NCBI GenBank assembly: GCA_041739995.1 | Contig: JBGSMV010000052.1 | Location: forward strand, 1 to 51,411 | Length of the DNA: 51,411 nucleotides | From: Bdellovibrionota bacterium | GTDB lineage: Bacteria; Bdellovibrionota_C; UBA2361; JBGSMV01 | Direction: 5' to 3' | Part shown: positions 8,131 through 45,554 of the stretch, piece after piece | Numbering within the stretch: the first letter of the stretch is position 1 | Layout of the letters: the number at the start of each line of letters is the position of its first letter | Program-made: the position numbers and the translations under genes | Notes under the pieces: generated by a model | The model's input: only the letters and a program-made list of their open reading frames with translations | Databases searched by the model: none | Told to the model about the DNA's origin: nothing

Positions 8131-8214
8131 GTTTTCACCACAGAGGGCGCAGGGGTCCACAGAGGAGGAGCCTCTCTGTAATCCTCTGATTCCTGTGGTG
8201 AAATTGAACGTTGG
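8131..8214. repeat. Palindromic intergenic repeat family B, copy 1
   Basis: TTTCACCACAG...CTGTGGTGAAA imperfect hairpin, homologous to 16101-16189. Preceded by a short tandem of CCACAGTG(T/C)TGTTT units from about 8105. Confidence 0.8.
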
Positions 8215-8269: not shown

Positions 8270-9100
8270 GTGCAAACAAGTTCTTCACCATCAACGTCGA
8301 AAGCCTCCTCTAAGGGACCTTCTGGGGCACCGTCTCCTGGAGACGAAACCGACAACGATATTTTTACCGATCCTGCGATTGCGCGAGCAATGGTCGAAGA
8401 CCCACTGTTTCGTTGGCTCAACAATTCCTGGAAGCCGGTGCTCACTGTCGTGGTGGCTGTGGTGCTCGGCAGTTATGCCTGGAGCCAGTTTAAGCAGACC
8501 GAGCAAGCGCGCTTTGCCGAGTACGCGGAGCTCTATCAGCGCGGGGGGCAGCAGTTCGAAGAGGTTCAGGAAAAGGCGAAGGAGCTTTCTCAGCTGCGTG
8601 CTTCGTCGGTTGTCATGGATGAGGCAACCCAAAAGAAGCTTTCTGAGTTAGAGCAGGGACTGGCGCAGAGCCGATTGCGCCTTCAAGATACTCTCGCAGC
8701 GCTTGGTGATACCGGTGCCCCGTATGTGAATCTTGCGCAGCTCTATCGAGGACTCTCAGAGGCGACCGCGGGAGATAATGATAAGGCCATTGCGACCTTG
8801 GAGATTGGGGAGTGGAAGCAGGCCGCGGGGTCTGGTGCTCCCGATATCGCAGCTGAGCTCGCGGCACTCGCACGTGCGCGTGTGCTAGTTGATCAGGAAG
8901 AAACTTTTAAGCAGGGCTGGAGCGTGCTCAAAGAGTTAGCAACCAGCAGTAAGTTCGTTTTTGCTGGTGCGATGGTAACTCTTTCGCGAGTGGCCAGGAA
9001 TGATGAAGAGCGTGCTGAGGCGAGTGAAGTGCTCCGACAGGTTCGTGAGCAACATCCCGAGCAAGCAGAGCTGCTTGAGCAAGCGGTTTCTCGACTCTAA
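8270..9100 (+). CDS. Single-pass membrane protein with helical/TPR-like periplasmic domain (YfgM-like architecture)
   Basis: GGAGA RBS before GTG 8270; WLNNSWK followed by one TM segment and helical repeats. Confidence 0.6.
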   Translation: MQTSSSPSTSKASSKGPSGAPSPGDETDNDIFTDPAIARAMVEDPLFRWLNNSWKPVLTVVVAVVLGSYAWSQFKQTEQARFAEYAELYQRGGQQFEEVQEKAKELSQLRASSVVMDEATQKKLSELEQGLAQSRLRLQDTLAALGDTGAPYVNLAQLYRGLSEATAGDNDKAIATLEIGEWKQAAGSGAPDIAAELAALARARVLVDQEETFKQGWSVLKELATSSKFVFAGAMVTLSRVARNDEERAEASEVLRQVREQHPEQAELLEQAVSRL

Positions 9101-9149
9101 CTACCTTCCGGGTGCGTGATATTCTTGGACTCCTTCGCGACGGCCCTGC

Positions 9150-9378
9150 GCCTACTCACCGTCCGCTATAATAAATCTTCACCAAAATGCACGCTCATCC
9201 ACTAAAACCTCGCGTATCCATCCACTGAGTTCTCAGGTCGTTCAGGCTTTCTGGTTAATTTTTGTGTGCGCGGAGACCCCTGAGGGAGCGGAGGGAAAAA
9301 CAGTTTTCCTTGCCTAGATTCAGTCTAGGCAACCTCAACGATCTCTCCATATGCACCTGCGCCCTTCCACTAAAGTCC
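9150..9378 (+). repeat. Repeat family C, copy 1 (about 230 bp, segment order X-Y)
   Basis: 9168-9212 matches the reverse complement of 16840-16884 (38/45 by hand). 9210-9378 matches the reverse complement of 16918-17077. Lies between convergent genes. Confidence 0.9.
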
Positions 9379-9405
9379 CGCAATTCAATGGGCTAGGTTC
9401 CCCGG

Positions 9406-10755
9406 CTATTTCTTATTCTTGTTTCTTTGGGCCAACTGTTTGGCCTTTCGTGTGCTGACCGACTGCTCGGGAGATGGGGCATTCTTCGTGGGTGCTATCA
9501 TGCGGGAATCTTCTCGCGTAACTGTCTCAATGTGGGCCTCCCGAAGCGCTTCGAGGATGCGCGTTTTGTGATCTTCGTTTCGTACTTCAAGTTCAAAAGT
9601 GATATCCACATTTCCAGGGATTCGTGAAAACGAACGATCGTGAATGACCTCCAAGATATTCGCAGCTTCGCGTGCGAATATGGCGGTGGCAAACGCCAGA
9701 GACCCTGGTCGATCGGGCACTGAAAGTTGCATTCGAAGCAGGCGCCCACGCTCGCCCATGTCTCGTTCGAGAAGACGCGAGAGCACGTTGATATCGATGT
9801 TGCTTCCACAAGCGAGCAGAACGGTCCGGCGGCATTTTGGTGGAAGGTGGTTTGCCAATACTCCCGCGAGGGAAGCCGCCCCCGCGCCTTCGACTACCGC
9901 ATGCTCGTGTTCGATGTATTGTACGATCGCATGAGCAATCACAGACTCACTTACAGAAACCACTTTGTCGACAAGCTTCTCAATGAGCGGTCCGGTGACC
10001 TTGCCAATGCGCTTTACTGCGATACCGTCTGCAACCGTGGCGGGAGGGAGGCGGGAAAGCATCGTGAGTGAGGCGGGCGAGACCACTTTCTTGCCCGAGG
10101 AAACAGTCGATGGCGCGGATCGCCTGGCGCTTACTGCCCACTCTGATTGAACGCCAAGTATAAAAATGTCTGGGCGCTTTGCTTTGAGCACTGTGGCGAT
10201 ACCGCCAATGAGGCCGCCGCCGCCAATGGGAACCACAATCGAATCAAAGTCCGCGAGCTGATCAACTATTTCGATCCCGCATGAGCCCTGACCAGTCACC
10301 ACTCGCTCATCGTCATAGGCAGAGATGAACTCAAAATTCCTCTCAGTCGCAAGTCCCAGGCAATGTTGATAGGCCTCGTCCAGTGTGTGCCCGAACAAAA
10401 TCACTTCCGCGCCATAGTTCTGCGCTGACTGAACTTTTACCAGAGGAGCGGTTACGGGCATTACCACCGTACAGGGGACCTTGAGTCGTTGTGCGTGAAA
10501 ACTCAGTGCCATGGCGTGATTGCCGGCGCTGGCCGCGCAGACGCCGTTCTTACGTTGAGCGTCGGTCAGGCTCATGAGCGCATGTAAGGCTCCACGCTCT
10601 TTAAACGAGCCGGTGCGGTGCATGTTGTCCCATTTGATAAAAATCTCACGACCCAGTCGCTCCGAGAATGCGGCTGAGCGCAGAAGTGGCGTTACGTTAA
10701 GAAAGGGACGCAACTGCTTGGTAGCCTGCTCAATATCTGGAAGGGTAATAGCCAT
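9406..10755 (-). CDS. ilvA: Threonine ammonia-lyase with C-terminal ACT domain
   Basis: TGSFKERGA (PLP Lys), ASAGNHA, PIGGGGLIGG, ADGIAVK, ACT motif VPDRPGSL. Confidence 0.9.
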   Translation of the reverse strand: MAITLPDIEQATKQLRPFLNVTPLLRSAAFSERLGREIFIKWDNMHRTGSFKERGALHALMSLTDAQRKNGVCAASAGNHAMALSFHAQRLKVPCTVVMPVTAPLVKVQSAQNYGAEVILFGHTLDEAYQHCLGLATERNFEFISAYDDERVVTGQGSCGIEIVDQLADFDSIVVPIGGGGLIGGIATVLKAKRPDIFILGVQSEWAVSARRSAPSTVSSGKKVVSPASLTMLSRLPPATVADGIAVKRIGKVTGPLIEKLVDKVVSVSESVIAHAIVQYIEHEHAVVEGAGAASLAGVLANHLPPKCRRTVLLACGSNIDINVLSRLLERDMGERGRLLRMQLSVPDRPGSLAFATAIFAREAANILEVIHDRSFSRIPGNVDITFELEVRNEDHKTRILEALREAHIETVTREDSRMIAPTKNAPSPEQSVSTRKAKQLAQRNKNKK

Positions 10756-10994
10756 GCGACCTATATGATGCGGGTAAGCCTCTTGCTGAACGACCGAGTC
10801 GTATAAGCCTGTCTATAAGATGTACCTGCACTGCTACGATTTCGAAATTAGCTATCTTTAAAGGAGTGTTAGCGGGAATAGGCACGGCTTTGAGCTAGTG
10901 ACACGCTGTCTCTGCAGGGATAGAAAGAAGGAAGAGGCCCGCAGGAACACCCTAAACGGGGAGCGAGGGCGTCTTGGGGATTACAGGAGCGGCA

Positions 10995-12008
10995 ATGGCA
11001 CTGCCAAAGCGTGTATATATTCGTGAAGTGGGGCCTAGAGAAGGGTTGCAAATCCTAGGGCGAGACTCGTGCGGATCGGGAAGCGAAGGAGCCTTATTTT
11101 CTACCCAAGAGAAGAGTGAGCTGATCTCCCGCTTAGCTGCTACAGGAGTGCCGGAGATTGAGGTTGCCTCGATGGTTCGGGCCGATCGGGTGCCGCAGAT
11201 GGCGGATGCGGATGAACTCATTGCATCGATGTCGGTAAACCCTTTGGTGCGCTACACCGCACTCTATCTAAATCCGCAAGGGTTCGAACGTGCTGAAGCA
11301 CTCGGCAAGTTGAGGAATCAAGGCTGGCTCTACACCGCAACCAGCGACAGTTTTCTCTCAAAGAATGCAAATACAAGCAGAGCAAAGATTATTGCCGGTC
11401 TTGATGCTTGGTTGGAGTTATTTAAGCGCCACGGAAAGGTGTTGCATGGAGTCATGATTTCTACCGCCTTCGGGTGCGGGTATGAAGGGCTTGCCGCGAG
11501 CGATCGATTGCTCGAAGTCAGTGAAGAAATTCTTGGAGCGTTAGCGGAGCGAGGAGTGGTGCCTGCCGAGCTGTCCTTTGCCGATACGGTGGGGCTTGGC
11601 TCACCCGAGCTTGTGCGCGAGCGAGTTCAAGGTTTTCGAAGTCGTTTCCCAAAAATACGTCTGTCGCTGCATTTGCATGATACCAGAGGTTTGGGCATCG
11701 CTAATGCCTATGCTGGACTTCTTGAAGGTATCGATTGTTTCGATGCGTCATTGGGGGGCATGGGAGGCTGTCCGTTTACTCCGGGGGCGGCTGGAAACGT
11801 GGCGACGGAAGATCTCCTCTACCTATGCCAGCAGCTTAGGATTGAGACTAGTATTTCGCTTGATGCCTATGTGGAAACCGTGCGCTGGTTTTCTGCGCTT
11901 TTGGAGAAGAAGCTTTTAGAGTCAAGGGGAAAAGACGGATCAAAGGATGCACTGTTGATGCGATCTTCGGCTCTCTCCGGTAAGTATTTTCGGGCACATG
12001 GTGTCTAG
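10995..12008 (+). CDS. Hydroxymethylglutaryl-CoA lyase family protein
   Basis: EVGPREGLQ, FADTVG, HLHDTRG, GGMGGCPF, GNVATED. AGGAG RBS before ATG 10995. Confidence 0.88.
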   Translation: MALPKRVYIREVGPREGLQILGRDSCGSGSEGALFSTQEKSELISRLAATGVPEIEVASMVRADRVPQMADADELIASMSVNPLVRYTALYLNPQGFERAEALGKLRNQGWLYTATSDSFLSKNANTSRAKIIAGLDAWLELFKRHGKVLHGVMISTAFGCGYEGLAASDRLLEVSEEILGALAERGVVPAELSFADTVGLGSPELVRERVQGFRSRFPKIRLSLHLHDTRGLGIANAYAGLLEGIDCFDASLGGMGGCPFTPGAAGNVATEDLLYLCQQLRIETSISLDAYVETVRWFSALLEKKLLESRGKDGSKDALLMRSSALSGKYFRAHGV

Positions 12009-12036
12009 TGTCTTAAGTTAAGAGTTCAATGGACAA

Positions 12037-12112
12037 TTCTCGCCGAGCTCGTCGAGGTCTTAGTGAATATATTTAATGAATTACACAATGAGTTCAGCGA
12101 GAACAGCGAGAA
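12037..12112 (-). repeat. Palindromic intergenic repeat family A, copy 1 (76 bp)
   Basis: Reverse complement reads TTCTCGCTG..CTCGCTG..CTCATTGTG-TAATTCATTAA...CGAG..CGGCGAGAA, matching 13125-13200 and 41092-41167. Confidence 0.9.
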
Positions 12113-12225
12113 AAATGCTGGGAGGCATTCCAACTCAATACACTAACGCTATCAAGGCGCTTGTGTCCTCTATGGTGGAGCGTTATTGAGAAGGGAGCAT
12201 TTAGACGAAACGGGAGGTGAAAATC

Positions 12226-12516
12226 ATGAAAAGCTTCTTTGTTCCGTTTAGTTCAGGCGAGCCAGCAACGATCAGTGTAAATGGGCACCGCTTAGTTCTG
12301 CTGTCTCGGAGCTCTCGATTGATCTCGGAATCACTCCCGCATCTTGGAGCTGATTCGATTCGACGTTTGCGATGCAGCAAGACACGCGCGGCAGAGGAAC
12401 GCTTACTTCAACGAGTTTCATCCTGGGCGAAGGCGGGAATTGTAATTGCTCCGAAGGGAGTTGAGCTGGCTTCTGTGATCGAGAACTTAGAATCGGAGCT
12501 ACCGTGGATTCAGTAG
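12226..12516 (+). CDS. Hypothetical protein
   Basis: GGAGG 8 nt before ATG 12226; overlaps the next ORF. Confidence 0.7.
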   Translation: MKSFFVPFSSGEPATISVNGHRLVLLSRSSRLISESLPHLGADSIRRLRCSKTRAAEERLLQRVSSWAKAGIVIAPKGVELASVIENLESELPWIQ

Positions 12517-13034
12517 AATGCGGGGAGCTTCCGCTGTTAAGGCTTGCGCAAAGGAGTGCTGTGCGAGTTGTGCTGAGCGCATTCTTCGTCGCCTACCTCA
12601 CGGCCTGTACTCCTGACGTGAGGGATCGACCTCCTGGGTTTATTCGACTGGCACCTGTCTGGGCCTTGGTGCGTCCGGAGACAATTATCGAACGATCTGC
12701 GGTGATGGTGCGTTACGACGAACAGGGCTTTTCGGTGATGAGCACGCTTTCGACCTATGACTTAAGCCGTTTGCAACGGGTTAGGGTGGGAGAGAGCTGG
12801 CATTGGGCCTCAAAGACCGATGGAAGCGAATTTGCCGCAGACGGCACGGTCCTTAAGGGGCCAGCGGTCGCGGCGCTGCCCTATTACGAGATGATAGTGG
12901 ATTATGGGGGAGTCGACAGCACACAACCCGAGACCTTGTACGCAAAACTCGGAAGTCAGAAACCACCGACTTATCGTCTCAAGCCTCCGGAGCATCTGTT
13001 GATTTCTCCAGATGCCGCAACCCCGCCGCCATAG
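12504..13034 (+). CDS. Lipoprotein with a Rieske-like fold lacking all Cys/His ligands
   Basis: Lipobox LTAC. STLSTYDLS and SKTDGSEFAADGTVLKGPA..ALPYY align with Rieske CTHLGC and CPCHGSxFxxxGxVxxGPAxxPLxxY. Confidence 0.7.
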   Translation: MDSVECGELPLLRLAQRSAVRVVLSAFFVAYLTACTPDVRDRPPGFIRLAPVWALVRPETIIERSAVMVRYDEQGFSVMSTLSTYDLSRLQRVRVGESWHWASKTDGSEFAADGTVLKGPAVAALPYYEMIVDYGGVDSTQPETLYAKLGSQKPPTYRLKPPEHLLISPDAATPPP

Positions 13035-13124
13035 AGCAAAAGCCAATTGGAAGCGCACTACAATAACTTCCCCGACGCACAGGTTTTTTCGCGAGCCTGC
13101 TGTTGTCCCTAGTTGGCAGTTTCT

Positions 13125-13200
13125 TTCTCGCTGCCCTCGCTGGACTCATTGTAGAATTCATTAAGATTATTCACAAAGAGATCAGCGAGCACAGCGAGGG
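13125..13200 (+). repeat. Palindromic intergenic repeat family A, copy 2
   Basis: TTCTCGCTGCCCTCGCTGGACTCATTG...AATTCATTAA...CACAAAGAGATCAGCGAGCACAGCGAG; between convergent genes. Confidence 0.9.
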
Positions 13201-13258
13201 GCATTCATCGATCGCTTAGACCGAGATACTAGAAATTTCGGAATCAGAACACGAGAAC

Positions 13259-14737
13259 CTATTCGATGTCTGCCGGAGCAGTTGAACTAAGAATCTGGTC
13301 CATCGGAGTGCGAGTGCTGGTTTCGAATGAATTGGCGACATGAGGTTTCGGCAGTGCGGCGATTTGGGTGCCCCCGTACCATAGGTGCATCTCTGAAGTT
13401 TCAGGCTTTGGTTCCAAACGTTGATCAATAAAAATGAGTTGAAGCGAGAGTGGCCCGGATTGTACCGGGAAAAAGACTCGCACGTCAGTCGGAGCTCCTT
13501 CGATCATCGCCATATGGGGGAACGCTGCCCAAACAGGCTCTCCGTTCGGACCAGTGACTCTAAACTGGAGTGGGCGAAAACCACGGAAATTAAATTCAGG
13601 ATCTGAAGCTTCAAGATCGAGGTGGAGTGCCTGTTGCTCGTCAACCCAGGCTCTTTCAAGCTTCAGCGAAGGACTTGGAGGTAGGCCTGACACTCGTGCA
13701 ACGTTGGCTGCCCACAACAAGGTGCAGATTCCGAGTATTTGGCAAGCGCGTCGTGGTGGAAGCAGCCATTCTACAGAGCGTGCTACAAACGATCCCTCTG
13801 AAGTGAGCTGAGCATGACGGTGGAAAGTCTCTTTAGATGATGCTGAATCGCCTGTAATTTTTTGCCATTCTGCCTCCGACAAAAGATGAAGACCAAAGCT
13901 GGTGGTCAGTAGAGAGCAGAGCAACCATTGAACTCCGCTGAACAAGTCAGCAAGGAGACAAAGCCCCAGGGAGCGACCGTCCGGATAGGGTGCAAGGAGT
14001 AGGAGCACCGGCAGGAACTGGAGTGCCGAGGGAGCAAGTACAGACTTGATGGGTGACCATGGATCGCGTGCGACCAGTTCGCGGCAAAGGCTGATTCGCT
14101 CTGGCAACGCCATGCCTGGCAGTGGAAGCGTAAAGCTCCAATAGTAATGAATGTACCAAACAAATCCCGCCGGTAATGCCATGAAAAGAGCGGGTCCGAT
14201 TCCTCCGGGGCTGCCTGCCGTCCAGAGGATCTCCAGCGGTATCACTCCCGAGGGGCACAGCAGCGTGACCCATGAAATGAGACCGACGGCGAAGAATATG
14301 AAACATGAGAGTAGCATGGCCTTGGGGCGGCGCTTCTGTAGCGGGTTAACCTGAGCAAGGGCGAGGTGGACTATTGCGAGTAGAACTCCAAGTTCGATGA
14401 GGCGCTCCGCCAGTCTGAGCGCAATTAAAACTCCTGGATTGGAAGGACTAAAGAGGGTCAATGCCAAGCGTGGCAGAACGAGCAGGAGATACAGCGAGGC
14501 AAAAGTGAGACGAGATTCCGCCAGCAGGGAGAGGGCACCTGAGTAGGGGCTGTGAGGCGCTCTTTTGGTGCTTAGCGGTGGCTTGATGCTTGGCAGTGAC
14601 GGATCTGTCCTCCCAGCCGCTTGTGATTCGCCCGCGTGCTTAGTCGAGGCTGAATCAAGCTCTGTAATCTGTGATGTCGCCGCCATTTCAGGAGGCTGTG
14701 TTCCCGTCTGATTCCCGCGTTTATCTCTCGTCCCCAT
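13259..14737 (-). CDS. Hypothetical multi-pass membrane protein with C-terminal soluble domain (start uncertain)
   Basis: Long ORF with roughly 7 hydrophobic segments; fills the gap between neighbours. Confidence 0.7.
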   Translation of the reverse strand: MGTRDKRGNQTGTQPPEMAATSQITELDSASTKHAGESQAAGRTDPSLPSIKPPLSTKRAPHSPYSGALSLLAESRLTFASLYLLLVLPRLALTLFSPSNPGVLIALRLAERLIELGVLLAIVHLALAQVNPLQKRRPKAMLLSCFIFFAVGLISWVTLLCPSGVIPLEILWTAGSPGGIGPALFMALPAGFVWYIHYYWSFTLPLPGMALPERISLCRELVARDPWSPIKSVLAPSALQFLPVLLLLAPYPDGRSLGLCLLADLFSGVQWLLCSLLTTSFGLHLLSEAEWQKITGDSASSKETFHRHAQLTSEGSFVARSVEWLLPPRRACQILGICTLLWAANVARVSGLPPSPSLKLERAWVDEQQALHLDLEASDPEFNFRGFRPLQFRVTGPNGEPVWAAFPHMAMIEGAPTDVRVFFPVQSGPLSLQLIFIDQRLEPKPETSEMHLWYGGTQIAALPKPHVANSFETSTRTPMDQILSSTAPADIE

Positions 14738-14790
14738 AGTGCTGTTCGTAACTCAAATAGCTGAAGGAAGGTAGACGGGTAGCGGGGGGA

Positions 14791-16029
14791 GTGGCTACAC
14801 TCTCGCCTATGGAAGAATTGAGAGACACCATCGCGGTGCTGGGCTCTCCAGAGGAAAAACTGCTTCGGCTGCTTGCCAAGCTAGGGTACCGCCTGGAACA
14901 GGCCAACGAGAAAACGCCATTGAGTACCCTTTTGGATACTCGAGTGGTTGATCTCATCTTGATCGCCGCTGATAGCGTACCTGAGTTCCGAGATATTGTG
15001 GCACATCTTCGCCAAGACGAAGCAACCAGGCGTACCCCAGTAGTCATCAGTGGTATCTCCGCGGCGCTGATGAAGGAGCTTGCCACCGAAAAGGTAGACA
15101 AGTGCGAGTTCATACCTCAAGGGGCACCGATCGCGAGTGTTTCCGTTAAAGTGGCCACTCTACTGCGTCTACGAAAAATGGCCGGCGGAGACTCTCAGAG
15201 CGCTAGTGTCGGCGAGGCGAACGCCATGCTGCGTGATCTTAACACGCGCTTCCAAAAGGAGTTGGAGGAAGCAAAGAAAATTCAGTTGGGATTGCTTCCT
15301 CGCGTATTGCCAAAGGGCTCGGGGTTTGATCTGGCGGTGACCTATCAGCCGCTCGATGGGGTTGGAGGAGACTGGTATTTTGTCAGAGAGGTTCCTGGGG
15401 AGAAGCTCTCGATTCAAATTGCGGATGTGACCGGCCACGGACTCTCCGCGGCTTTCATTTGTAGTATGACAAAGCTGGCACTGACTGCCGTTGTTCAGGG
15501 CGGTGGCATACAGAACGGAAGTGCAGGGGGCGCTGGCGTGGAGCTTGACCGAGAGCAGCCTGAAGTTTTGCTTGAGCGCATGAACTCGTTGCTTGCCCCA
15601 CAGCTTCCTGACGAGCGCTTCGTTACCGCAGCTACGTTGCGCTATCATCCCGCTTCCGGAGCACTTGAATATGCGCGTGCGGGCCACCCACCAGCAATTC
15701 TTTTTCGACGAAGCGACAGTTCCTTTAGCGAGCTTAAGGGCAGCGGTTTTGCGCTTGGGTTTATGGACGAGGCTCAATATGTTCCGGTCAGTGAGAAGCT
15801 CGCTCCTGGCGATCTTTTGGTGCTCTATACCGACGGTATCACCGAAGCGCAGAACCGAAGTCTTGAACTGTACGGTACCGAGCGCTTAGTTAAAGTACTG
15901 CAGCGCAGCACCGGTGAAATGTCGGCCGAGCAGGTGCTGCAAAGTATGCTTGAAGATTTCACTGCTTTTTCGGATGGGCGTATTTTGAAAGACGATGTGA
16001 CGGTTGTGGTGCTTAAACGAGTCAGTTGA
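14791..16029 (+). CDS. PP2C/SpoIIE (RsbU-like) phosphatase with degenerate N-terminal receiver-like domain
   Basis: IQLGLLP, VGGDWY, IADVTGHG, YARAGHPP, LYTDG, DDVT. Confidence 0.9.
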   Translation: MATLSPMEELRDTIAVLGSPEEKLLRLLAKLGYRLEQANEKTPLSTLLDTRVVDLILIAADSVPEFRDIVAHLRQDEATRRTPVVISGISAALMKELATEKVDKCEFIPQGAPIASVSVKVATLLRLRKMAGGDSQSASVGEANAMLRDLNTRFQKELEEAKKIQLGLLPRVLPKGSGFDLAVTYQPLDGVGGDWYFVREVPGEKLSIQIADVTGHGLSAAFICSMTKLALTAVVQGGGIQNGSAGGAGVELDREQPEVLLERMNSLLAPQLPDERFVTAATLRYHPASGALEYARAGHPPAILFRRSDSSFSELKGSGFALGFMDEAQYVPVSEKLAPGDLLVLYTDGITEAQNRSLELYGTERLVKVLQRSTGEMSAEQVLQSMLEDFTAFSDGRILKDDVTVVVLKRVS

Positions 16030-16100
16030 GCGGGGTGAAATGATTCAGCTGATTCATTTCGATGGGGTCCTCGCAGGTTGAGTTTGATCGTGAAGGCACG

Positions 16101-16189
16101 GTTTTCACCACAGAGGACGCGGAGTTACGCGGAGGGGGACTCCTCCCTTTGTGATTCGCTGAGTCCTCGGTAGTGAAGTGAAACGTTGG
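16101..16189. repeat. Palindromic intergenic repeat family B, copy 2
   Basis: GTTTTCACCACAGAGGACGCGGAG...GGTAGTGAAG..AACGTTGG, homologous to 8131-8214. Confidence 0.8.
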
Positions 16190-16267
16190 TGAGATAAAAC
16201 GCTCTGGAGTTCACCGTCAGTTGAATATCTAGTTTCTCAGATTTTTGATTAGCTTGTCACCTTGCCA

Positions 16268-16759
16268 ATGAACTCTATACTCACCGATCACTTGCACTCC
16301 TCCCTTACGGTATTCCCTTCAGCCACGCTTACTTTAGCACTCCTTTTTGAATGCTGGGTTGTCTTTTATCGCCAGAGCACCATGCGATTGGTCGTCTTGG
16401 TGTTGGTGACGGTGGGAACGCTTGGTGTTATCGCCGCATTTGTATCCGGCTATGTTGCTGCGGAGGGCGCAGATCGTTTCTTCCTCGTGCCGGACGAAGC
16501 AATAAGCACGCATCATGAAACGGGACGCTTCCTCTTGTTTGGATCGATTGCGATGTGCGGCCTGTGGTGGATTGCTCGATTCGCAAAGGTGAAGGCGGAA
16601 GTCTTTCAGTGCTGCGCACGTGTTTTGTTGGTCGTTGTCGTTGGACTATGTGCGTATACGGCCTTTCTCGGTGGCGAACTGGTGCAGCACTACGGTGCAG
16701 GGGTGCATGCGACCGGGGCGGTGATTAATAGCAGCACCGCTCAAGGTGCAAACCAGTAA
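16268..16759 (+). CDS. DUF2231-like 4-TM membrane protein
   Basis: Four hydrophobic segments; H..L.VFP at the N-terminus, HH, and C-terminal GGELVQHYGAGV. Confidence 0.65.
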   Translation: MNSILTDHLHSSLTVFPSATLTLALLFECWVVFYRQSTMRLVVLVLVTVGTLGVIAAFVSGYVAAEGADRFFLVPDEAISTHHETGRFLLFGSIAMCGLWWIARFAKVKAEVFQCCARVLLVVVVGLCAYTAFLGGELVQHYGAGVHATGAVINSSTAQGANQ

Positions 16760-16839
16760 TCAGAGTTATTTGCGACATCGTTTAGGTAGCAAGTCGTCAA
16801 GGGGGAATCCCGCGATTCTTCTCAACTACGGCGCCTGGA

Positions 16840-17078
16840 CGATGCTTTAGTGGGTGAGCGTGCCTTCTGGTTAGGATTTATTATCGTGGGGACAAGGAGA
16901 GAGCGGAGCGTAGGCTAGGACTGTATCAGGAATGCGCACGTGCATATGGGGGGGCTGGCTCAGTCTGAATCTTAGACAAGAAAACCAGTTTCCTTCCGCT
17001 CCCTCAGGGGTCTCCGCGTAAATGAAAAATAACCAGAAGGCGTGAAGGACCTGAGAACTCAGTTGATGGATACGCGAT
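16840..17078 (-). repeat. Repeat family C, copy 2 (239 bp, order Y-X on the minus strand), bounded by CGAT direct repeats
   Basis: CGAT at 16840-16843 and 17075-17078. Internal perfect 12-bp inverted repeat GCCTTCTGGTTA (16862-16873) / TAACCAGAAGGC (17030-17041). Homologous to 9150-9378. Confidence 0.9.
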
Positions 17079-17151
17079 CTGACGGCTACCATTACGCCAC
17101 GAAGGTAGAAAATTGTGGTTTACTGAGGTTCCTTGGGTATTTTTCGTGTTG

Positions 17152-17802
17152 TTACGATCGTCGTAGGCGATTCGGGCGTTTTTTCTGCGCCGTGACACCG
17201 CCTTGCACTTTGGTTGGAGCGCCGCCCCCGGGAACCCAGAGATATTCAGGAGTTTTTGTGCGCGCCGATTCGTAGCGTGCCATGGCGAAAAGAAGGTCGC
17301 TCAGTCGATTGAGATAGCGAATCGGCTCCCGCAAACGCGACACCTTTTTTCGTTCGGCACGCGCTAGTGAGAGCACTCGACGTTCTGCACGCCGACACAC
17401 CGCTCGTGCGACGTGCAACGCCGCATTCATCGGCGAGCCGCCGGGCAGGACGAAAGAGCGTAGTTCGGGTAAGTTTCCTGAAAGCTCATCAATTAAATGC
17501 TCAAGATGCTGTACCGCTTGAGGCGCGGTCTTCTTCATTTGAGGCCATTCTTTTCCCGCAGGTGTGGCAAGTTCAGCTCCGAGGTCAAAAAGTTCATTTT
17601 GAAGCTGCTCGGTAATAGCGATTATGCGCTTGGCCTTGATGCGTACCGCTTCAGTGCGAATCACCCCAAGCCAGCAATTGAGTTCGTCAACCTCGCCATA
17701 AGCTTCGACTTGGAGCGAGTCCTTAAGAATTCGGTCGCCTCCGACTAGCCCAGTGGTGCCGTCATCGCCGGTACGTGTATAAATTCTATTTATTTTCACC
17801 AT
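17152..17802 (-). CDS. pduO: Cob(I)alamin adenosyltransferase, PduO type
   Basis: IYTRTGDDGTT, YGEVDELN, FVLPGG, CRRAER, YLNRLSDLLF. Confidence 0.93.
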   Translation of the reverse strand: MVKINRIYTRTGDDGTTGLVGGDRILKDSLQVEAYGEVDELNCWLGVIRTEAVRIKAKRIIAITEQLQNELFDLGAELATPAGKEWPQMKKTAPQAVQHLEHLIDELSGNLPELRSFVLPGGSPMNAALHVARAVCRRAERRVLSLARAERKKVSRLREPIRYLNRLSDLLFAMARYESARTKTPEYLWVPGGGAPTKVQGGVTAQKKRPNRLRRS

Positions 17803-44237: not shown

Positions 44238-45554
44238 ATGGATTTTACCTCAAACATAGAAGACGTAGATTCGGTAACGAAGCTGATAACCGTTTCAATT
44301 CCATCGAAGAATGTTGAGCAAGAGCTCGCGAGCTCCCTTGATCGAGTCTCAAAGCAAGTAGCGATAAAGGGCTTTCGTCCCGGAAAGGCGCCAAAGGATC
44401 TCGTGCAAAAGATGCATGGGGATATGGTGCGTGGCCAAGTCGCAGAGAAGCTTATCGGCGACTCACTCCAAGGTATCGTCAAGCAGCATGAGATTGACGT
44501 TATTGGTTCTCCGCAAATTGAGGGAGGTTCGGTCGAATCAGGGAAATCTCTTGAGTTTAAGGCGAGGGTCTCCGTGTTTCCTAAGCCAGAGCTCAAGGAG
44601 TATGCCAAGTTCGAGTTAAAGGTCGGAAAGAAGACGCCCACTGACGAAGACCTCAATCAGGTGGTCGAGCGCATGCGGCATGCCAAAGCTTCGGTAAAAC
44701 CGCTGGCTTTTCGTGATGTTGCCGCTAAGGGCGACGTGGTCGAACTTGGATTAGTTACCGCGCTTGAAGGCGAACCCGAGGGACGACCAGAGCCAGTGTC
44801 TATTGCATTGGGTGAGGGTCAGCTCCCGGTGGAGCTTGAAGACGGCATCGTTGGGATGAAAGTGGGAGAGACCAAGGACATCAACTCGATAATTCCGCAG
44901 GGCCATCGCGACGCTAAATTGCGTGGCAAGAGTGCGCTGCATCGCGTCACCCTGAACGGCCTTTCCGAGAAAGTGCTGCCAGAAGTGGATGATGACTTTG
45001 CGAAATCTCTTGAATTGAGCGTCGAGACTCTTCTTGAGTTGCGCATGAAGATTAGAGAGTCCCTCGAGCAGGAGACTGAGCGTCAATCAAAGATTGATTC
45101 AGAAGCAGCTATGCTCGAGCAGTTGGTCGAACGTAATCCGTTTGAGGTTCCACAAGTGTTGATCGACGAGGAAATTAGGGTGCTCGTTGCTCGTTCGGGC
45201 CTCACGGATGCGGCTAAGGTAAGAGATCCAAATTTCCCTGTGCAGCTATTTCGCGAAGGCTTGACCGAGCCTGCGGCAAAGCGCGTGAAGACCGCAATCC
45301 TGGTGGACCGCATTGCTGAGCTTGAGAAGTTGAGCGTGAACGAAGAGGAGCTAAAAGCTCGTATCAGCGAGATCGCCAAAGAAAACCAGGTAGGAGAGGA
45401 CGAGGTCCGCAAGTTCCTGTCTCAAGAAGGGCGCATGGTGAACCTGATGCTCGAAATGAGACGCTCAAAGACCATCACGTTTCTCATGGAACGAGCGAAG
45501 GTTGAGTTCTTTGAGAAGCCTGCTGAGGAGAAGGGAGAAGTGGCTGGCGCTTGA
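44238..45554 (+). CDS. tig: Trigger factor
   Basis: GFRPGKAP ribosome-binding motif, FKBP-like domain, upstream of clpP. Confidence 0.95.
   Translation: MDFTSNIEDVDSVTKLITVSIPSKNVEQELASSLDRVSKQVAIKGFRPGKAPKDLVQKMHGDMVRGQVAEKLIGDSLQGIVKQHEIDVIGSPQIEGGSVESGKSLEFKARVSVFPKPELKEYAKFELKVGKKTPTDEDLNQVVERMRHAKASVKPLAFRDVAAKGDVVELGLVTALEGEPEGRPEPVSIALGEGQLPVELEDGIVGMKVGETKDINSIIPQGHRDAKLRGKSALHRVTLNGLSEKVLPEVDDDFAKSLELSVETLLELRMKIRESLEQETERQSKIDSEAAMLEQLVERNPFEVPQVLIDEEIRVLVARSGLTDAAKVRDPNFPVQLFREGLTEPAAKRVKTAILVDRIAELEKLSVNEEELKARISEIAKENQVGEDEVRKFLSQEGRMVNLMLEMRRSKTITFLMERAKVEFFEKPAEEKGEVAGA

Follow-up and report, generated by a model that had tools for sequence, protein, structure and literature searches.

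The window analysed here, a stretch of 51,411 nucleotides from the Bdellovibrionota bacterium genome GCA_041739995.1, contains two copies of a non-coding sequence, locus 1 and locus 2 (Table 1), each of which lies between convergent open reading frames (ORFs), as had been stated in an earlier note on this DNA. That note described the two loci as circular permutations of one self-complementary element composed of a shorter segment X and a longer segment Y. The order it gave is correct: X is followed by Y in locus 1, and on the minus strand of locus 2 there follow Y, the linker and X. Its estimate of about 235 bp for the unit was too low (239–246 nt measured), and of the extent given for locus 1 (9150–9378) the end stands, whereas a degenerate left arm moves the start to approximately 9143. 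A profile model of the repeat (R1) matches positions 9143–9303 of locus 1 with an E value of 2.9e-42.

Table 1. Positions of locus 1 and locus 2 and of their parts within the window.
Feature	Position	Strand	Description
Locus 1	9143..9378	+	approximately one unit in the common order, unit ~6 to 243 (consensus alignment)
Locus 1, left arm	9144..9188	+	A 9144–9172, B 9174–9188
Locus 1, hairpin loop	9189..9243	+	contains the X|Y junction, CTCG at 9209–9212
Locus 1, right arm	9244..9296	+	B' 9244–9260, A' 9263–9296; CGGAG-type repeats ~9 nt apart
Locus 1, linker C	9297..9378	+	two small hairpins; near-palindrome around GCACCTGC
Locus 2	16840..17078	-	exactly one unit, permuted (76–246 followed by 1–79)
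Locus 2, loop, 3' part	17044..17078	-	starts with ATCG (17078–17075)
Locus 2, right arm	16992..17043	-	B' 17027–17043, A' 16992–17024
Locus 2, linker C	16915..16991	-	placed between the two arms
Locus 2, left arm	16864..16910	-	A 16880–16910, B 16864–16878
Locus 2, loop, 5' part	16840..16863	-	finishes with ATCG (16843–16840)

Three stretches of the repeat can be paired between the loci: 9210–9298 with 16989–17077 (89 nt, 89%; the start of Y), 9163–9212 with 16840–16889 (50 nt, 82%) and 9347–9378 with 16918–16949 (32 nt, 75%). BLASTN finds 84.7% identity over 118 nt (E 1.7e-29) and, in a second segment, 84.4% over 45 nt (38/45, E 1e-6), which is the figure that had been obtained for X by hand. 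Locus 2 has 239 nt, is 87% identical to the consensus and is opened inside the hairpin loop. The ATCG reported to bound it is indeed present at both ends; it belongs, however, to the element's own sequence and is therefore a terminal redundancy of 4 nt, which need not be a target duplication. Joining the two ends restores, as had been proposed, a junction that is contiguous in locus 1 (where it reads CTCG) and uninterrupted in 17 of the 20 loci of the family. The left arm of locus 2 pairs with the right arm across the linker (31/35 Watson-Crick), and the DNA folds as a long hairpin or rod (z = −2.33). In locus 1, in which part A of the left arm is degenerate and carries a deletion, arm pairing is only 0.79 and there is no rod (z = −1.21), so that the predicted rod fold holds for locus 2 and not for locus 1 alone. 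Contigs from public sequencing runs span both loci (8965–9585 and 16146–17161) with zero differences; as a check on the assembly this is weak independent support, because these runs, all from one study, may include the genome's source sample.

A genome-wide search returned about 20 intergenic loci of one non-coding hairpin repeat of approximately 240 bases, and a single cyclic map of 246 nt, obtained with an HMM of the doubled unit and by pairwise alignment, fits 20 of 20. The map consists of a pair of inverted arms (~50 nt), each with three CGGAG-type repeats ~9 nt apart and an AT-rich part, a loop of 55 nt, which in the common unit order sits between the arms, and a linker of 80 nt, which comes after them; no gene is found in the 246 nt. 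The linker-to-arm junction is uninterrupted in 11 and the arm-to-linker junction in 14 of the 20 loci. X and Y are thus not independent repeats, since every locus keeps the one circular order. The two loci of the window thus both belong to a single DNA repeat, which is lineage-specific, non-coding and non-autonomous. Most members of the family are fractions of one unit with scattered ends, hairpin-only forms being in the majority, and one locus (C72) comprises ~1.3–2 units in head-to-tail form. The copies are 77–91% identical to the consensus, and many of their ends may therefore be secondary; the family is old and probably no longer active.

Of the 11 loci with an uninterrupted linker-to-arm junction, three differ from unit length by no more than 12 nt, and each of these is opened at a different point: locus 2 (C47b, span 250), C60 (235, or 240 by eye) and C36 (257). 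Under uniform spans the probability of three unit-length copies among 11 is ~0.04, which is a post hoc figure. Locus 1, with a span of 238, is a fourth near-unit copy. On the element strand of the consensus CTTG, GTTC and GTCC occur once each, ending at 179, 99 and 243, respectively, and the site at 76–79 is ATCG or CTCG. Both ends of C60 lie at 179|180, just 3' of CTTG, both ends of locus 2 at unit 79 (ATCG), and the 3' end of locus 1 at unit 243, immediately behind GTCC at the linker/arm border. C36 starts at 98|99, 1 nt off GTTC, its other end (unit 109) being away from such tetranucleotides. Each of the four unit-length copies is in this sense opened at, or not more than 1 nt from, a CTTG, GTTC, GTCC or ATCG site. 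The two ends of locus 2 and those of C60 coincide on the unit map within 0–4 nt, and there identity falls abruptly to random flanks. When all 20 automatically called 3' ends are counted, two end in CTTG, GTTC, GTCC or CTCG (CTTG in C60, GTCC in locus 1) versus 0.36 expected (P = 0.048), and three versus 0.46 expected (P = 0.011) if ATCG is added. Among the unit-length copies only locus 2 has a matching target tetranucleotide on its 5' side; the flanks of C60, C36 and locus 1 have none, and the ends of the hairpin-only copies are unrelated to these tetranucleotides. Several ends are at or near CTAG at unit 181–184 and 243–246 (C64, C74, C27). A target-site duplication was not recognisable at the ends of the 20 loci, many of which are blurred by decay. 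Among the assembled contigs no circle junction, no empty site and no polymorphic copy was seen, the relatives being too distant to reveal an empty site; contig joints that join back were considered as circle junctions and rejected, as they correspond to other genomic copies.

The window contains no mobilising enzyme, as noted before, and the same is true of the neighbourhood of all copies: none of 39 flanking ORFs is a mobility gene, and none of the copies adjoins a Y1 or Y2 gene. Elsewhere the genome has six matches to Y2_Tnp over the cut-off (IS91-type transposases), with one intact ORF (C77, 425 aa; Zn_Tnp_IS91 + Y2_Tnp), a multicopy Y1 HUH transposase (335 aa) and one reverse transcriptase gene (479 aa, RVT_1). 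In the flanks of the Y1 loci and of the reverse transcriptase locus nothing resembling the unit was found below E 0.1 (nhmmer --max), the ends of the Y1 element carrying an unrelated GTAG-tagged 15-mer repeat, and against the Y2 loci blastn-short gave chance 11-mers only. The Y2 copies of this genome have nothing but the gene body in common, and their ori and ter ends could therefore not be defined; no ori or ter end common to the unit and a resident IS91-like element was matched. An autonomous partner with the same arms was not found, since the genome-wide HMM search returns only the 20 loci and palindromic echoes and thus no element with these arms that flanks a transposase gene, but with the assembly 91% complete in 81 contigs such a partner could be unassembled. 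The presence of an enzyme is in itself uninformative because, among 91 genomes of the order, Y1 occurs in 79 and Y2 in 50.

The repeat resembles REPINs and BIMEs in being a non-coding intergenic hairpin made from two inverted repeats, with dozens of decaying copies and tandem clusters that include flanking sequence (C72 and the arrays in two other genera described below); where such units stand in an array, any two adjacent inverted arms can form a hairpin, whichever the phase. The genome also has a family of Y1 HUH genes, the kind of transposase (RAYT) that moves REPINs. REP sequences are, however, tagged imperfect palindromes of 20–40 nt, with GTAG or CGTC at one end (PMC3733652), whereas the arms here are ~50 nt long, contain direct CGGAG-type repeats, are not self-complementary and have no such tag. 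It also differs from REPINs in that it flanks no Y1 gene, the Y1 ends having a tagged repeat of their own, in its low copy number in this family and in the opening points of its copies, which fall within the loop or linker and not at module borders. With the rolling-circle insertion sequences of the IS91 family (IS91, IS801, IS1294) and their one-ended transposition it may have in common the absence of target duplications and ends next to CTTG-, GTTC-, GTCC- or CTCG-like tetranucleotides; such tetranucleotides are given as target and end cleavage sites of the IS91 family, ATCG not being in that published set, and transposition is described as proceeding without target duplication via single-strand circles (PMC13181058). 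Palindromes, products of variable length and Y2 transposases encoded in the same genome are further points of likeness to this family. In contrast, a match to an ori or ter end was lacking, the repeat has only 246 nt and no gene, and the related family in another genus (G014), which includes an array, occurs in a genome with no Y2_Tnp match. A further difference is the start, which is not fixed in the repeat. Known HUH elements have a fixed start (ori or left end), and several opening points would therefore be a departure.

Bacterial MITEs with long hairpins are represented by ERIC/IRU, Correia/NEMIS, RUP and Ypal. These elements are likewise non-coding, long imperfect palindromes of 100–250 nt that lie between genes near 3' gene ends; they have, however, fixed ends and target duplications, and a search of the full-text literature found no report of circular permutation in such MITEs. 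Eukaryotic satellite DNA and Helitron-derived tandem repeats form dispersed short arrays, with 0.5–2 units in variable phase, that are ascribed to circles or rolling-circle copies. The short variable-phase arrays scattered over the genome are similar, but by analogy only: domain of life, scale and enzymes differ.

The earlier proposal that the element spreads via a circular or tandem intermediate is partly supported, by the one circular map, the differing opening points and the head-to-tail forms; neither a free circle nor a rolling-circle product was seen. A spread via a circle or multimer is plausible. Our tentative preference, held at somewhat less than even confidence, is that the copies were made from a circular or head-to-tail form of the ~246-nt unit by a trans-acting single-strand HUH-type transposase, IS91- or IS200-like, which would have a choice of several short sites for opening the template. 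Copies of unit length would then be circular permutations of one another, locus 2 having been opened at ATCG in the loop and locus 1 at the linker/arm border, behind GTCC. Read-through may account for the longer copies, and truncation or later decay for the shorter ones. Against this preference count the absence of a strand bias relative to GC skew (12 copies in the same, 7 in the opposite orientation), the 5' flanks of C60, C36 and locus 1, the lack of similarity between the unit and the flanks of Y1 or Y2 genes, and the fixed start of known HUH elements. In a bolder and unlikely version the unit would be a DNA parasite that has no genes and is about as large as a viroid (~246 nt), a rod-like single-stranded circle or rolling-circle multimer that hijacks HUH transposases and would be cut after any of the four tetranucleotides ending at unit 79, 99, 179 and 243, each insertion then being a different circular permutation.

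A serious rival, somewhat less probable than copying by a transposase, is that the loci are what is left of tandem arrays in the chromosome: local duplication would have affected the hairpin together with flanking DNA, as it does in REPIN clusters and BIMEs, and whole arrays or parts of arrays, dispersed or inherited, would have been trimmed by deletions to different windows, with no circle involved. True arrays are indeed found in two other genera of the order, in families weakly related to this one (G014: period 203, 3.1 copies, 96% identical; G044: period 247, 2 copies, ~80%). The G044 linker is particular to its one locus and the G014 subfamilies have differing shared flanks; the many fractional loci here, with their scattered ends, and the strongly uneven preservation within C72, C27 and C74 point in the same direction. 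However, in this genome the linker is common to at least 11 dispersed loci and thus travels with the hairpin, two independent deletions would rarely give the coinciding, abrupt ends of locus 2 and C60, and ends at specific tetranucleotides are likewise not accounted for. That the family is an ordinary MITE mobilised by a DDE transposase, with the arms as long terminal inverted repeats, and that insertions next to or into older copies, e.g., at CTAG at the arm ends, produced a mosaic mimicking permutation, is distinctly improbable. The arms do act as inverted repeats and decay without compensation, hairpin-only copies prevail and several ends are at or near CTAG, but even clean ends have no recognisable target-site duplication, none of the listed HMM matches puts these arms beside a transposase gene, and nested or adjacent insertion explains neither the conserved linker-to-arm junction of 11 loci nor a copy split in its loop such as locus 2.

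Still less probable, and very unlikely, is a functional transcript or cis signal (a structured small RNA, a terminator or an mRNA stabiliser) that was selected and duplicated with its surroundings. In its favour, all 20 loci are intergenic and sit at 3' gene ends, 11 between convergent and 8 between co-directional ORFs, none between divergent ones and one not determinable, and conservation is highest from the 3' part of the loop to the end of the right arm. Against it, Rfam at gathering score found only two tRNAs in the window and, at E up to 5, two chance matches in six copy-bearing loci, both outside the copies; locus 1 and locus 2 have no sigma-70-like promoter or intrinsic terminator pattern; and circular permutation is not expected of a transcript. 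The covariation that the earlier note had suggested looking for was not found: of 579 cells (37 stem pairs in 18 hairpins) 447 are Watson-Crick, 29 G-T and 32 A-C, and 71 are other combinations; a double change occurs once, and there is thus neither covariation nor strand bias. The arms are decaying DNA and not structured RNA, and the rod fold reflects a DNA palindrome that decays without compensatory change. Searches of plasmid, phage and viral sequences with the repeat gave nothing. Lastly, retro-copies of a small circular RNA would be permuted and sometimes longer than one unit if the enzyme runs round the circle, and the genome has a reverse transcriptase gene; this origin is nevertheless the least credible, since neither ribozymes nor other RNA families match, pairing is not conserved in the manner of an RNA, poly-A and other hallmarks of retro-insertion are absent, and the nearest copy on the contig of that gene is ~68 kb away.

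Intergenic palindromic repeats are common, but for very few is their movement understood, and as a rule the ends are the same in all copies. When the members of a family are circular permutations of one unit, the genome itself holds a record of the intermediate. If the copies are trimmed arrays, this would be a further mosaic repeat confined to one lineage, and of modest interest. If, however, the parasite reading were true, it would be the first bacterial repeat family whose copies directly record a circular intermediate, and would imply relaxed start-site choice by a rolling-circle transposase. And if the openings are HUH cleavage sites, the unit would provide a simple assay substrate for Y2 and Y1 transposases, which are poorly studied, from an uncultured lineage resembling predatory bacteria, and a model for the origin and dispersal of tandem hairpin arrays such as BIME and REPIN clusters.

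The assembly to which the window belongs as contig C47 (G000; 81 contigs, 3.81 Mb, 52.4% G+C) contains 20 loci of one repeat, found with BLASTN and then with nhmmer using the head-to-tail doubled unit from contig C72. Iterated alignment of the copies yielded a consensus of 246 nt with two hairpin arms, a loop and a linker (C), which is numbered on a circular map (see table). All 20 loci align to some window of the repeated consensus, and from this fit and from the junction counts it follows that X and Y, the short and the long part shared by the two loci of the window, obey a single cyclic order. That they are independent repeats, the possibility against which the earlier note had set its interpretation, is therefore ruled out. 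The copies are 77–91% identical to the consensus, none of them being young, and span from 0.35 to about 2 units, the one on C72 comprising 1.3–2 units with a period of 222. A weak direct repeat within the unit, between loop start and linker end (common CCACTA.AG), may be due to chance, and CGCGGAG is not an unusually frequent heptamer in the genome (rank 32 of 105 heptamers of the same composition). On contig C6 (about 44680–44750) a short tandem run with a 14-nt unit (about GGCATTCCTGCACC), which resembles the linker end, lies directly upstream of one copy.

Features of the repeat unit and of individual copies (unit positions refer to the 246-nt consensus; copies are named after their contigs)
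Feature	Position	Remark
Left arm	A, unit 7–38; B, unit 40–55	
Loop	unit 56–110	
Right arm	B′, unit 111–127; A′, unit 130–163	
Linker C	unit 164–246	
X-Y junction	within loop	contiguous in 17/20 loci
Arm-to-linker junction		contiguous in 14/20 loci
Linker-to-arm junction		contiguous in 11/20 loci
Repeat pair, repeat search of window	9210–9298 and 16989–17077	89 nt, 89%
Repeat pair, repeat search of window	9163–9212 and 16840–16889	50 nt, 82%
Repeat pair, repeat search of window	9347–9378 and 16918–16949	32 nt, 75%
Locus 2 (C47b)	unit 76 to 79; opens at 79, both ends	ATCG; opening in loop
C60	unit 180 to 179; opens at 179/180, both ends	CTTG; start by eye, automatic alignment starts at 191
C36	unit 99 to 109; opens at 98/99, start only	GTTC, one base off; terminal redundancy 11 nt
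Locus 1	opens at 243, 3′ end	GTCC

In the window, locus 1 (about 9143–9378) read on the plus strand has the short X followed by the long Y, and locus 2 read on the minus strand (17078–16840) has Y, about 75 nt of further sequence and then X; the two main blocks match between the loci with E values of 1.7e-29 and 1e-6 (BLASTN). ATCG stands at each end of locus 2, and joining these ends recreates the X-Y junction of locus 1. Judged by the order of the parts, the ATCG at both ends and the junction restored on joining, the earlier description of two permuted loci was correct, and the phenomenon is broader than was first noted. Both loci are spanned without differences by contigs of public runs, which is weak independent support because the four DNA runs containing the stretch (no RNA run being listed) come from one study and possibly from the source sample of the assembly. 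The rod-like fold that had been proposed for the unit applies to locus 2, whose arms are still complementary across the linker (31/35 Watson-Crick) as in the permuted loci altogether, and which folds into a long hairpin (z −2.33), but not to locus 1, whose left arm is damaged (z −1.21).

The window also holds other repeats. A second small palindromic family, whose outer arms begin TTTCACCACAGAGG, is present at 8131–8214 and 16101–16189 and has about 10 loci in G000; a 33-mer of it is found with 91–94% identity on many contigs of a genome of the same genus (G001), the genes there being only about 64% identical, and the copy at 16101–16189 has two ACGCGGAG repeats like those of the main-family arms. 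Furthermore, inverted repeats of 117 nt (12004–12120 and 13117–13233, 72% identical) surround about 1 kb with two ORFs that belong to no Pfam family (12217–12516 and 12504–13034). In the public-run contigs the summed depth rises about ten-fold over the region of the left 117-nt arm, where loose ends are numerous, which marks this arm as a repeat of high copy number within the community.

All 20 loci of the main family are in intergenic DNA, the flanking ORFs being convergent at 11, co-directional at 8, divergent at none and undeterminable at 1. Relative to GC skew, 12 copies have the same and 7 the opposite orientation; the replication-strand bias is not significant. Among the 39 flanking ORFs (Pfam thresholds 1e-3 for four window ORFs and 1e-5 for the 35 others), 11 are without a Pfam family and none has a transposase, integrase, HUH or reverse-transcriptase domain, so that the lack of a mobilising enzyme, noted before for the window, extends to the neighbourhood of all copies. 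For one flanking enzyme the best named relative is from a Bdellovibrionales MAG (49% amino-acid identity).

Neither locus of the window shows a conserved ORF, promoter or terminator pattern, and Rfam gave no match at gathering score or at a relaxed E-value. A functional RNA is less likely: in 37 predicted stem pairs of 18 hairpins there are 447 Watson-Crick, 29 G-T, 32 A-C and 71 other cells and one double change, and the palindromes hence decay without compensation or strand bias. With covariation absent and G-T on a par with A-C mismatches, a structured RNA was rejected; uncompensated decay is in keeping with inverted repeats at the DNA level and not with an RNA fold under selection. An integron attC site was rejected by inspection, because the AAC/GTT-containing boxes adjoin the loop rather than the outer stem base and because a single fixed crossover point would not yield permutations. 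The exact gapped motif of the right arm had no match in genome_contigs or viral_contigs and two chance matches in metagenome_contigs, not recognised by the family HMM, and blastn of locus 2 against plasmids and phages gave none.

With BLAST, locus 2 was found in 0 of 30 relatives. Profile R1, built from 18 hairpin rows and in effect a sequence profile (its default structure has only 5 pairs), revealed weak but clear relatives in G014 and G044, genomes from two further genera of the order; with a cutoff of E 1e-4 and G000 included, it matched three of 124 genomes from the phylum. The arms of the three families are alike in having three CGGAG-type repeats 8–10 nt apart and, on the inner side, an AT-rich part. 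Loop and linker are not the same from family to family, and only in G000 is a linker common to many dispersed loci. About a dozen hairpins are scattered over G014, which also has a single array of hairpin plus linker (3.1 units, period 203, 96% identical; extracted locus L045, 1306–1928, contig C113) directly behind a gene whose Gly-Met-rich tail, by reading GroEL-like, is succeeded by a terminator-like hairpin. For G044 the count is about 7 loci, together with an array of two units (period 247, about 80% identical). Tandem arrays, which the earlier note had suggested looking for, are thus present in related genomes, and the head-to-tail state recurs in such repeats. In this they resemble REPIN clusters, which according to PMC3116915 likewise form head-to-tail arrays.

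That copies are opened at different points is seen in those of unit length. Of the 11 loci with the linker-to-arm junction, three differ from unit length by no more than 12 nt (P about 0.04 under uniform spans, post hoc), and each of them (locus 2, C60 and C36) opens elsewhere on the map, as had been proposed from two copies; to these locus 1, in the common phase from about unit 6 to unit 243, adds a fourth of nearly unit length. Precisely where locus 2 and C60 end, identity breaks off from about 85% to the level of random sequence. For the IS91 family, a 2026 paper (PMC13181058) describes transposition through a single-strand circle without target duplication, with insertion next to CTTG, GTTC or GTCC and ter-end cleavage at CTCG or GTTC. 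On its element strand the consensus has a single CTTG, a single GTTC and a single GTCC, ending at unit 179, 99 and 243, respectively; at unit 76–79 most copies read ATCG and locus 1 reads CTCG. The published set is found at 2 of 20 automatically called 3′ ends (0.36 expected, P 0.048) and, with ATCG added, at 3 of 20 (0.46 expected, P 0.011), which is a lead and no test, since the match was noticed only after the paper had been read. The end of C36 at unit 109 fits none of these sites, and a matching tetranucleotide in the 5′ flank is confined to locus 2.

We tentatively favor copying by an HUH-type transposase, which would have used a circle or a head-to-tail multimer as template and opened it at alternative short sites. 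Spread of a small element through a circle, as the earlier note had it, agrees with the one cyclic map; neither a circle nor an empty site was found. The contigs of the four public DNA runs contain no skipped form, and their joints that go back (17058 to 16839/16840 and 17078 to 16846) are not circle junctions because the inserted letters match other genomic copies; in four relatives only short gene fragments align at the empty-site comparison. Candidate enzymes exist in G000. A Y1 HUH (IS200-like) transposase of 335 aa is multicopy in the order, where 79 of 91 genomes have it and single genomes give as many as 23 matches; G000 has one full copy (C68, 1677–2681; L025/L072) and fragments at the ends of C42, C23, C55 and C32, and the ends of its element carry a GTAG-tagged 15-mer unrelated to the main repeat (three copies at one end, one inverted at the other). 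The IS91-family Y2_Tnp, present in 50 of 91 genomes, has six matches in G000 (C8, C77, C16, C42 and C67), alike in the gene body only (70–80% nt), with one intact ORF (on C77, 425 aa, Zn_Tnp_IS91 plus Y2_Tnp), and none in G014. In G000 neither sequence nor neighborhood ties the repeat to the Y1 element, the Y2 genes or the reverse transcriptase gene, and the phyletic correlation of Y1 or Y2 with the repeat across the order is uninformative.

A serious and only somewhat less probable rival is that the copies arose by trimming of local arrays like those of REPIN clusters or BIMEs; the arrays in G014 and G044 speak for it, and the fact that both ends of locus 2 and of C60 fall at one unit position speaks against it. 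A retro-copy is less likely, the sole reverse transcriptase ORF (479 aa, RVT_1; L027, 1042–2481, or about 47.9–49.3 kb of C36) being near no copy, and so is a DDE-type MITE, to which the palindromic arms might point. Whichever way they arose, the copies are windows on a circular map, several of them exactly one unit long, and the family is a new one, an old palindromic mosaic repeat that is probably inactive.
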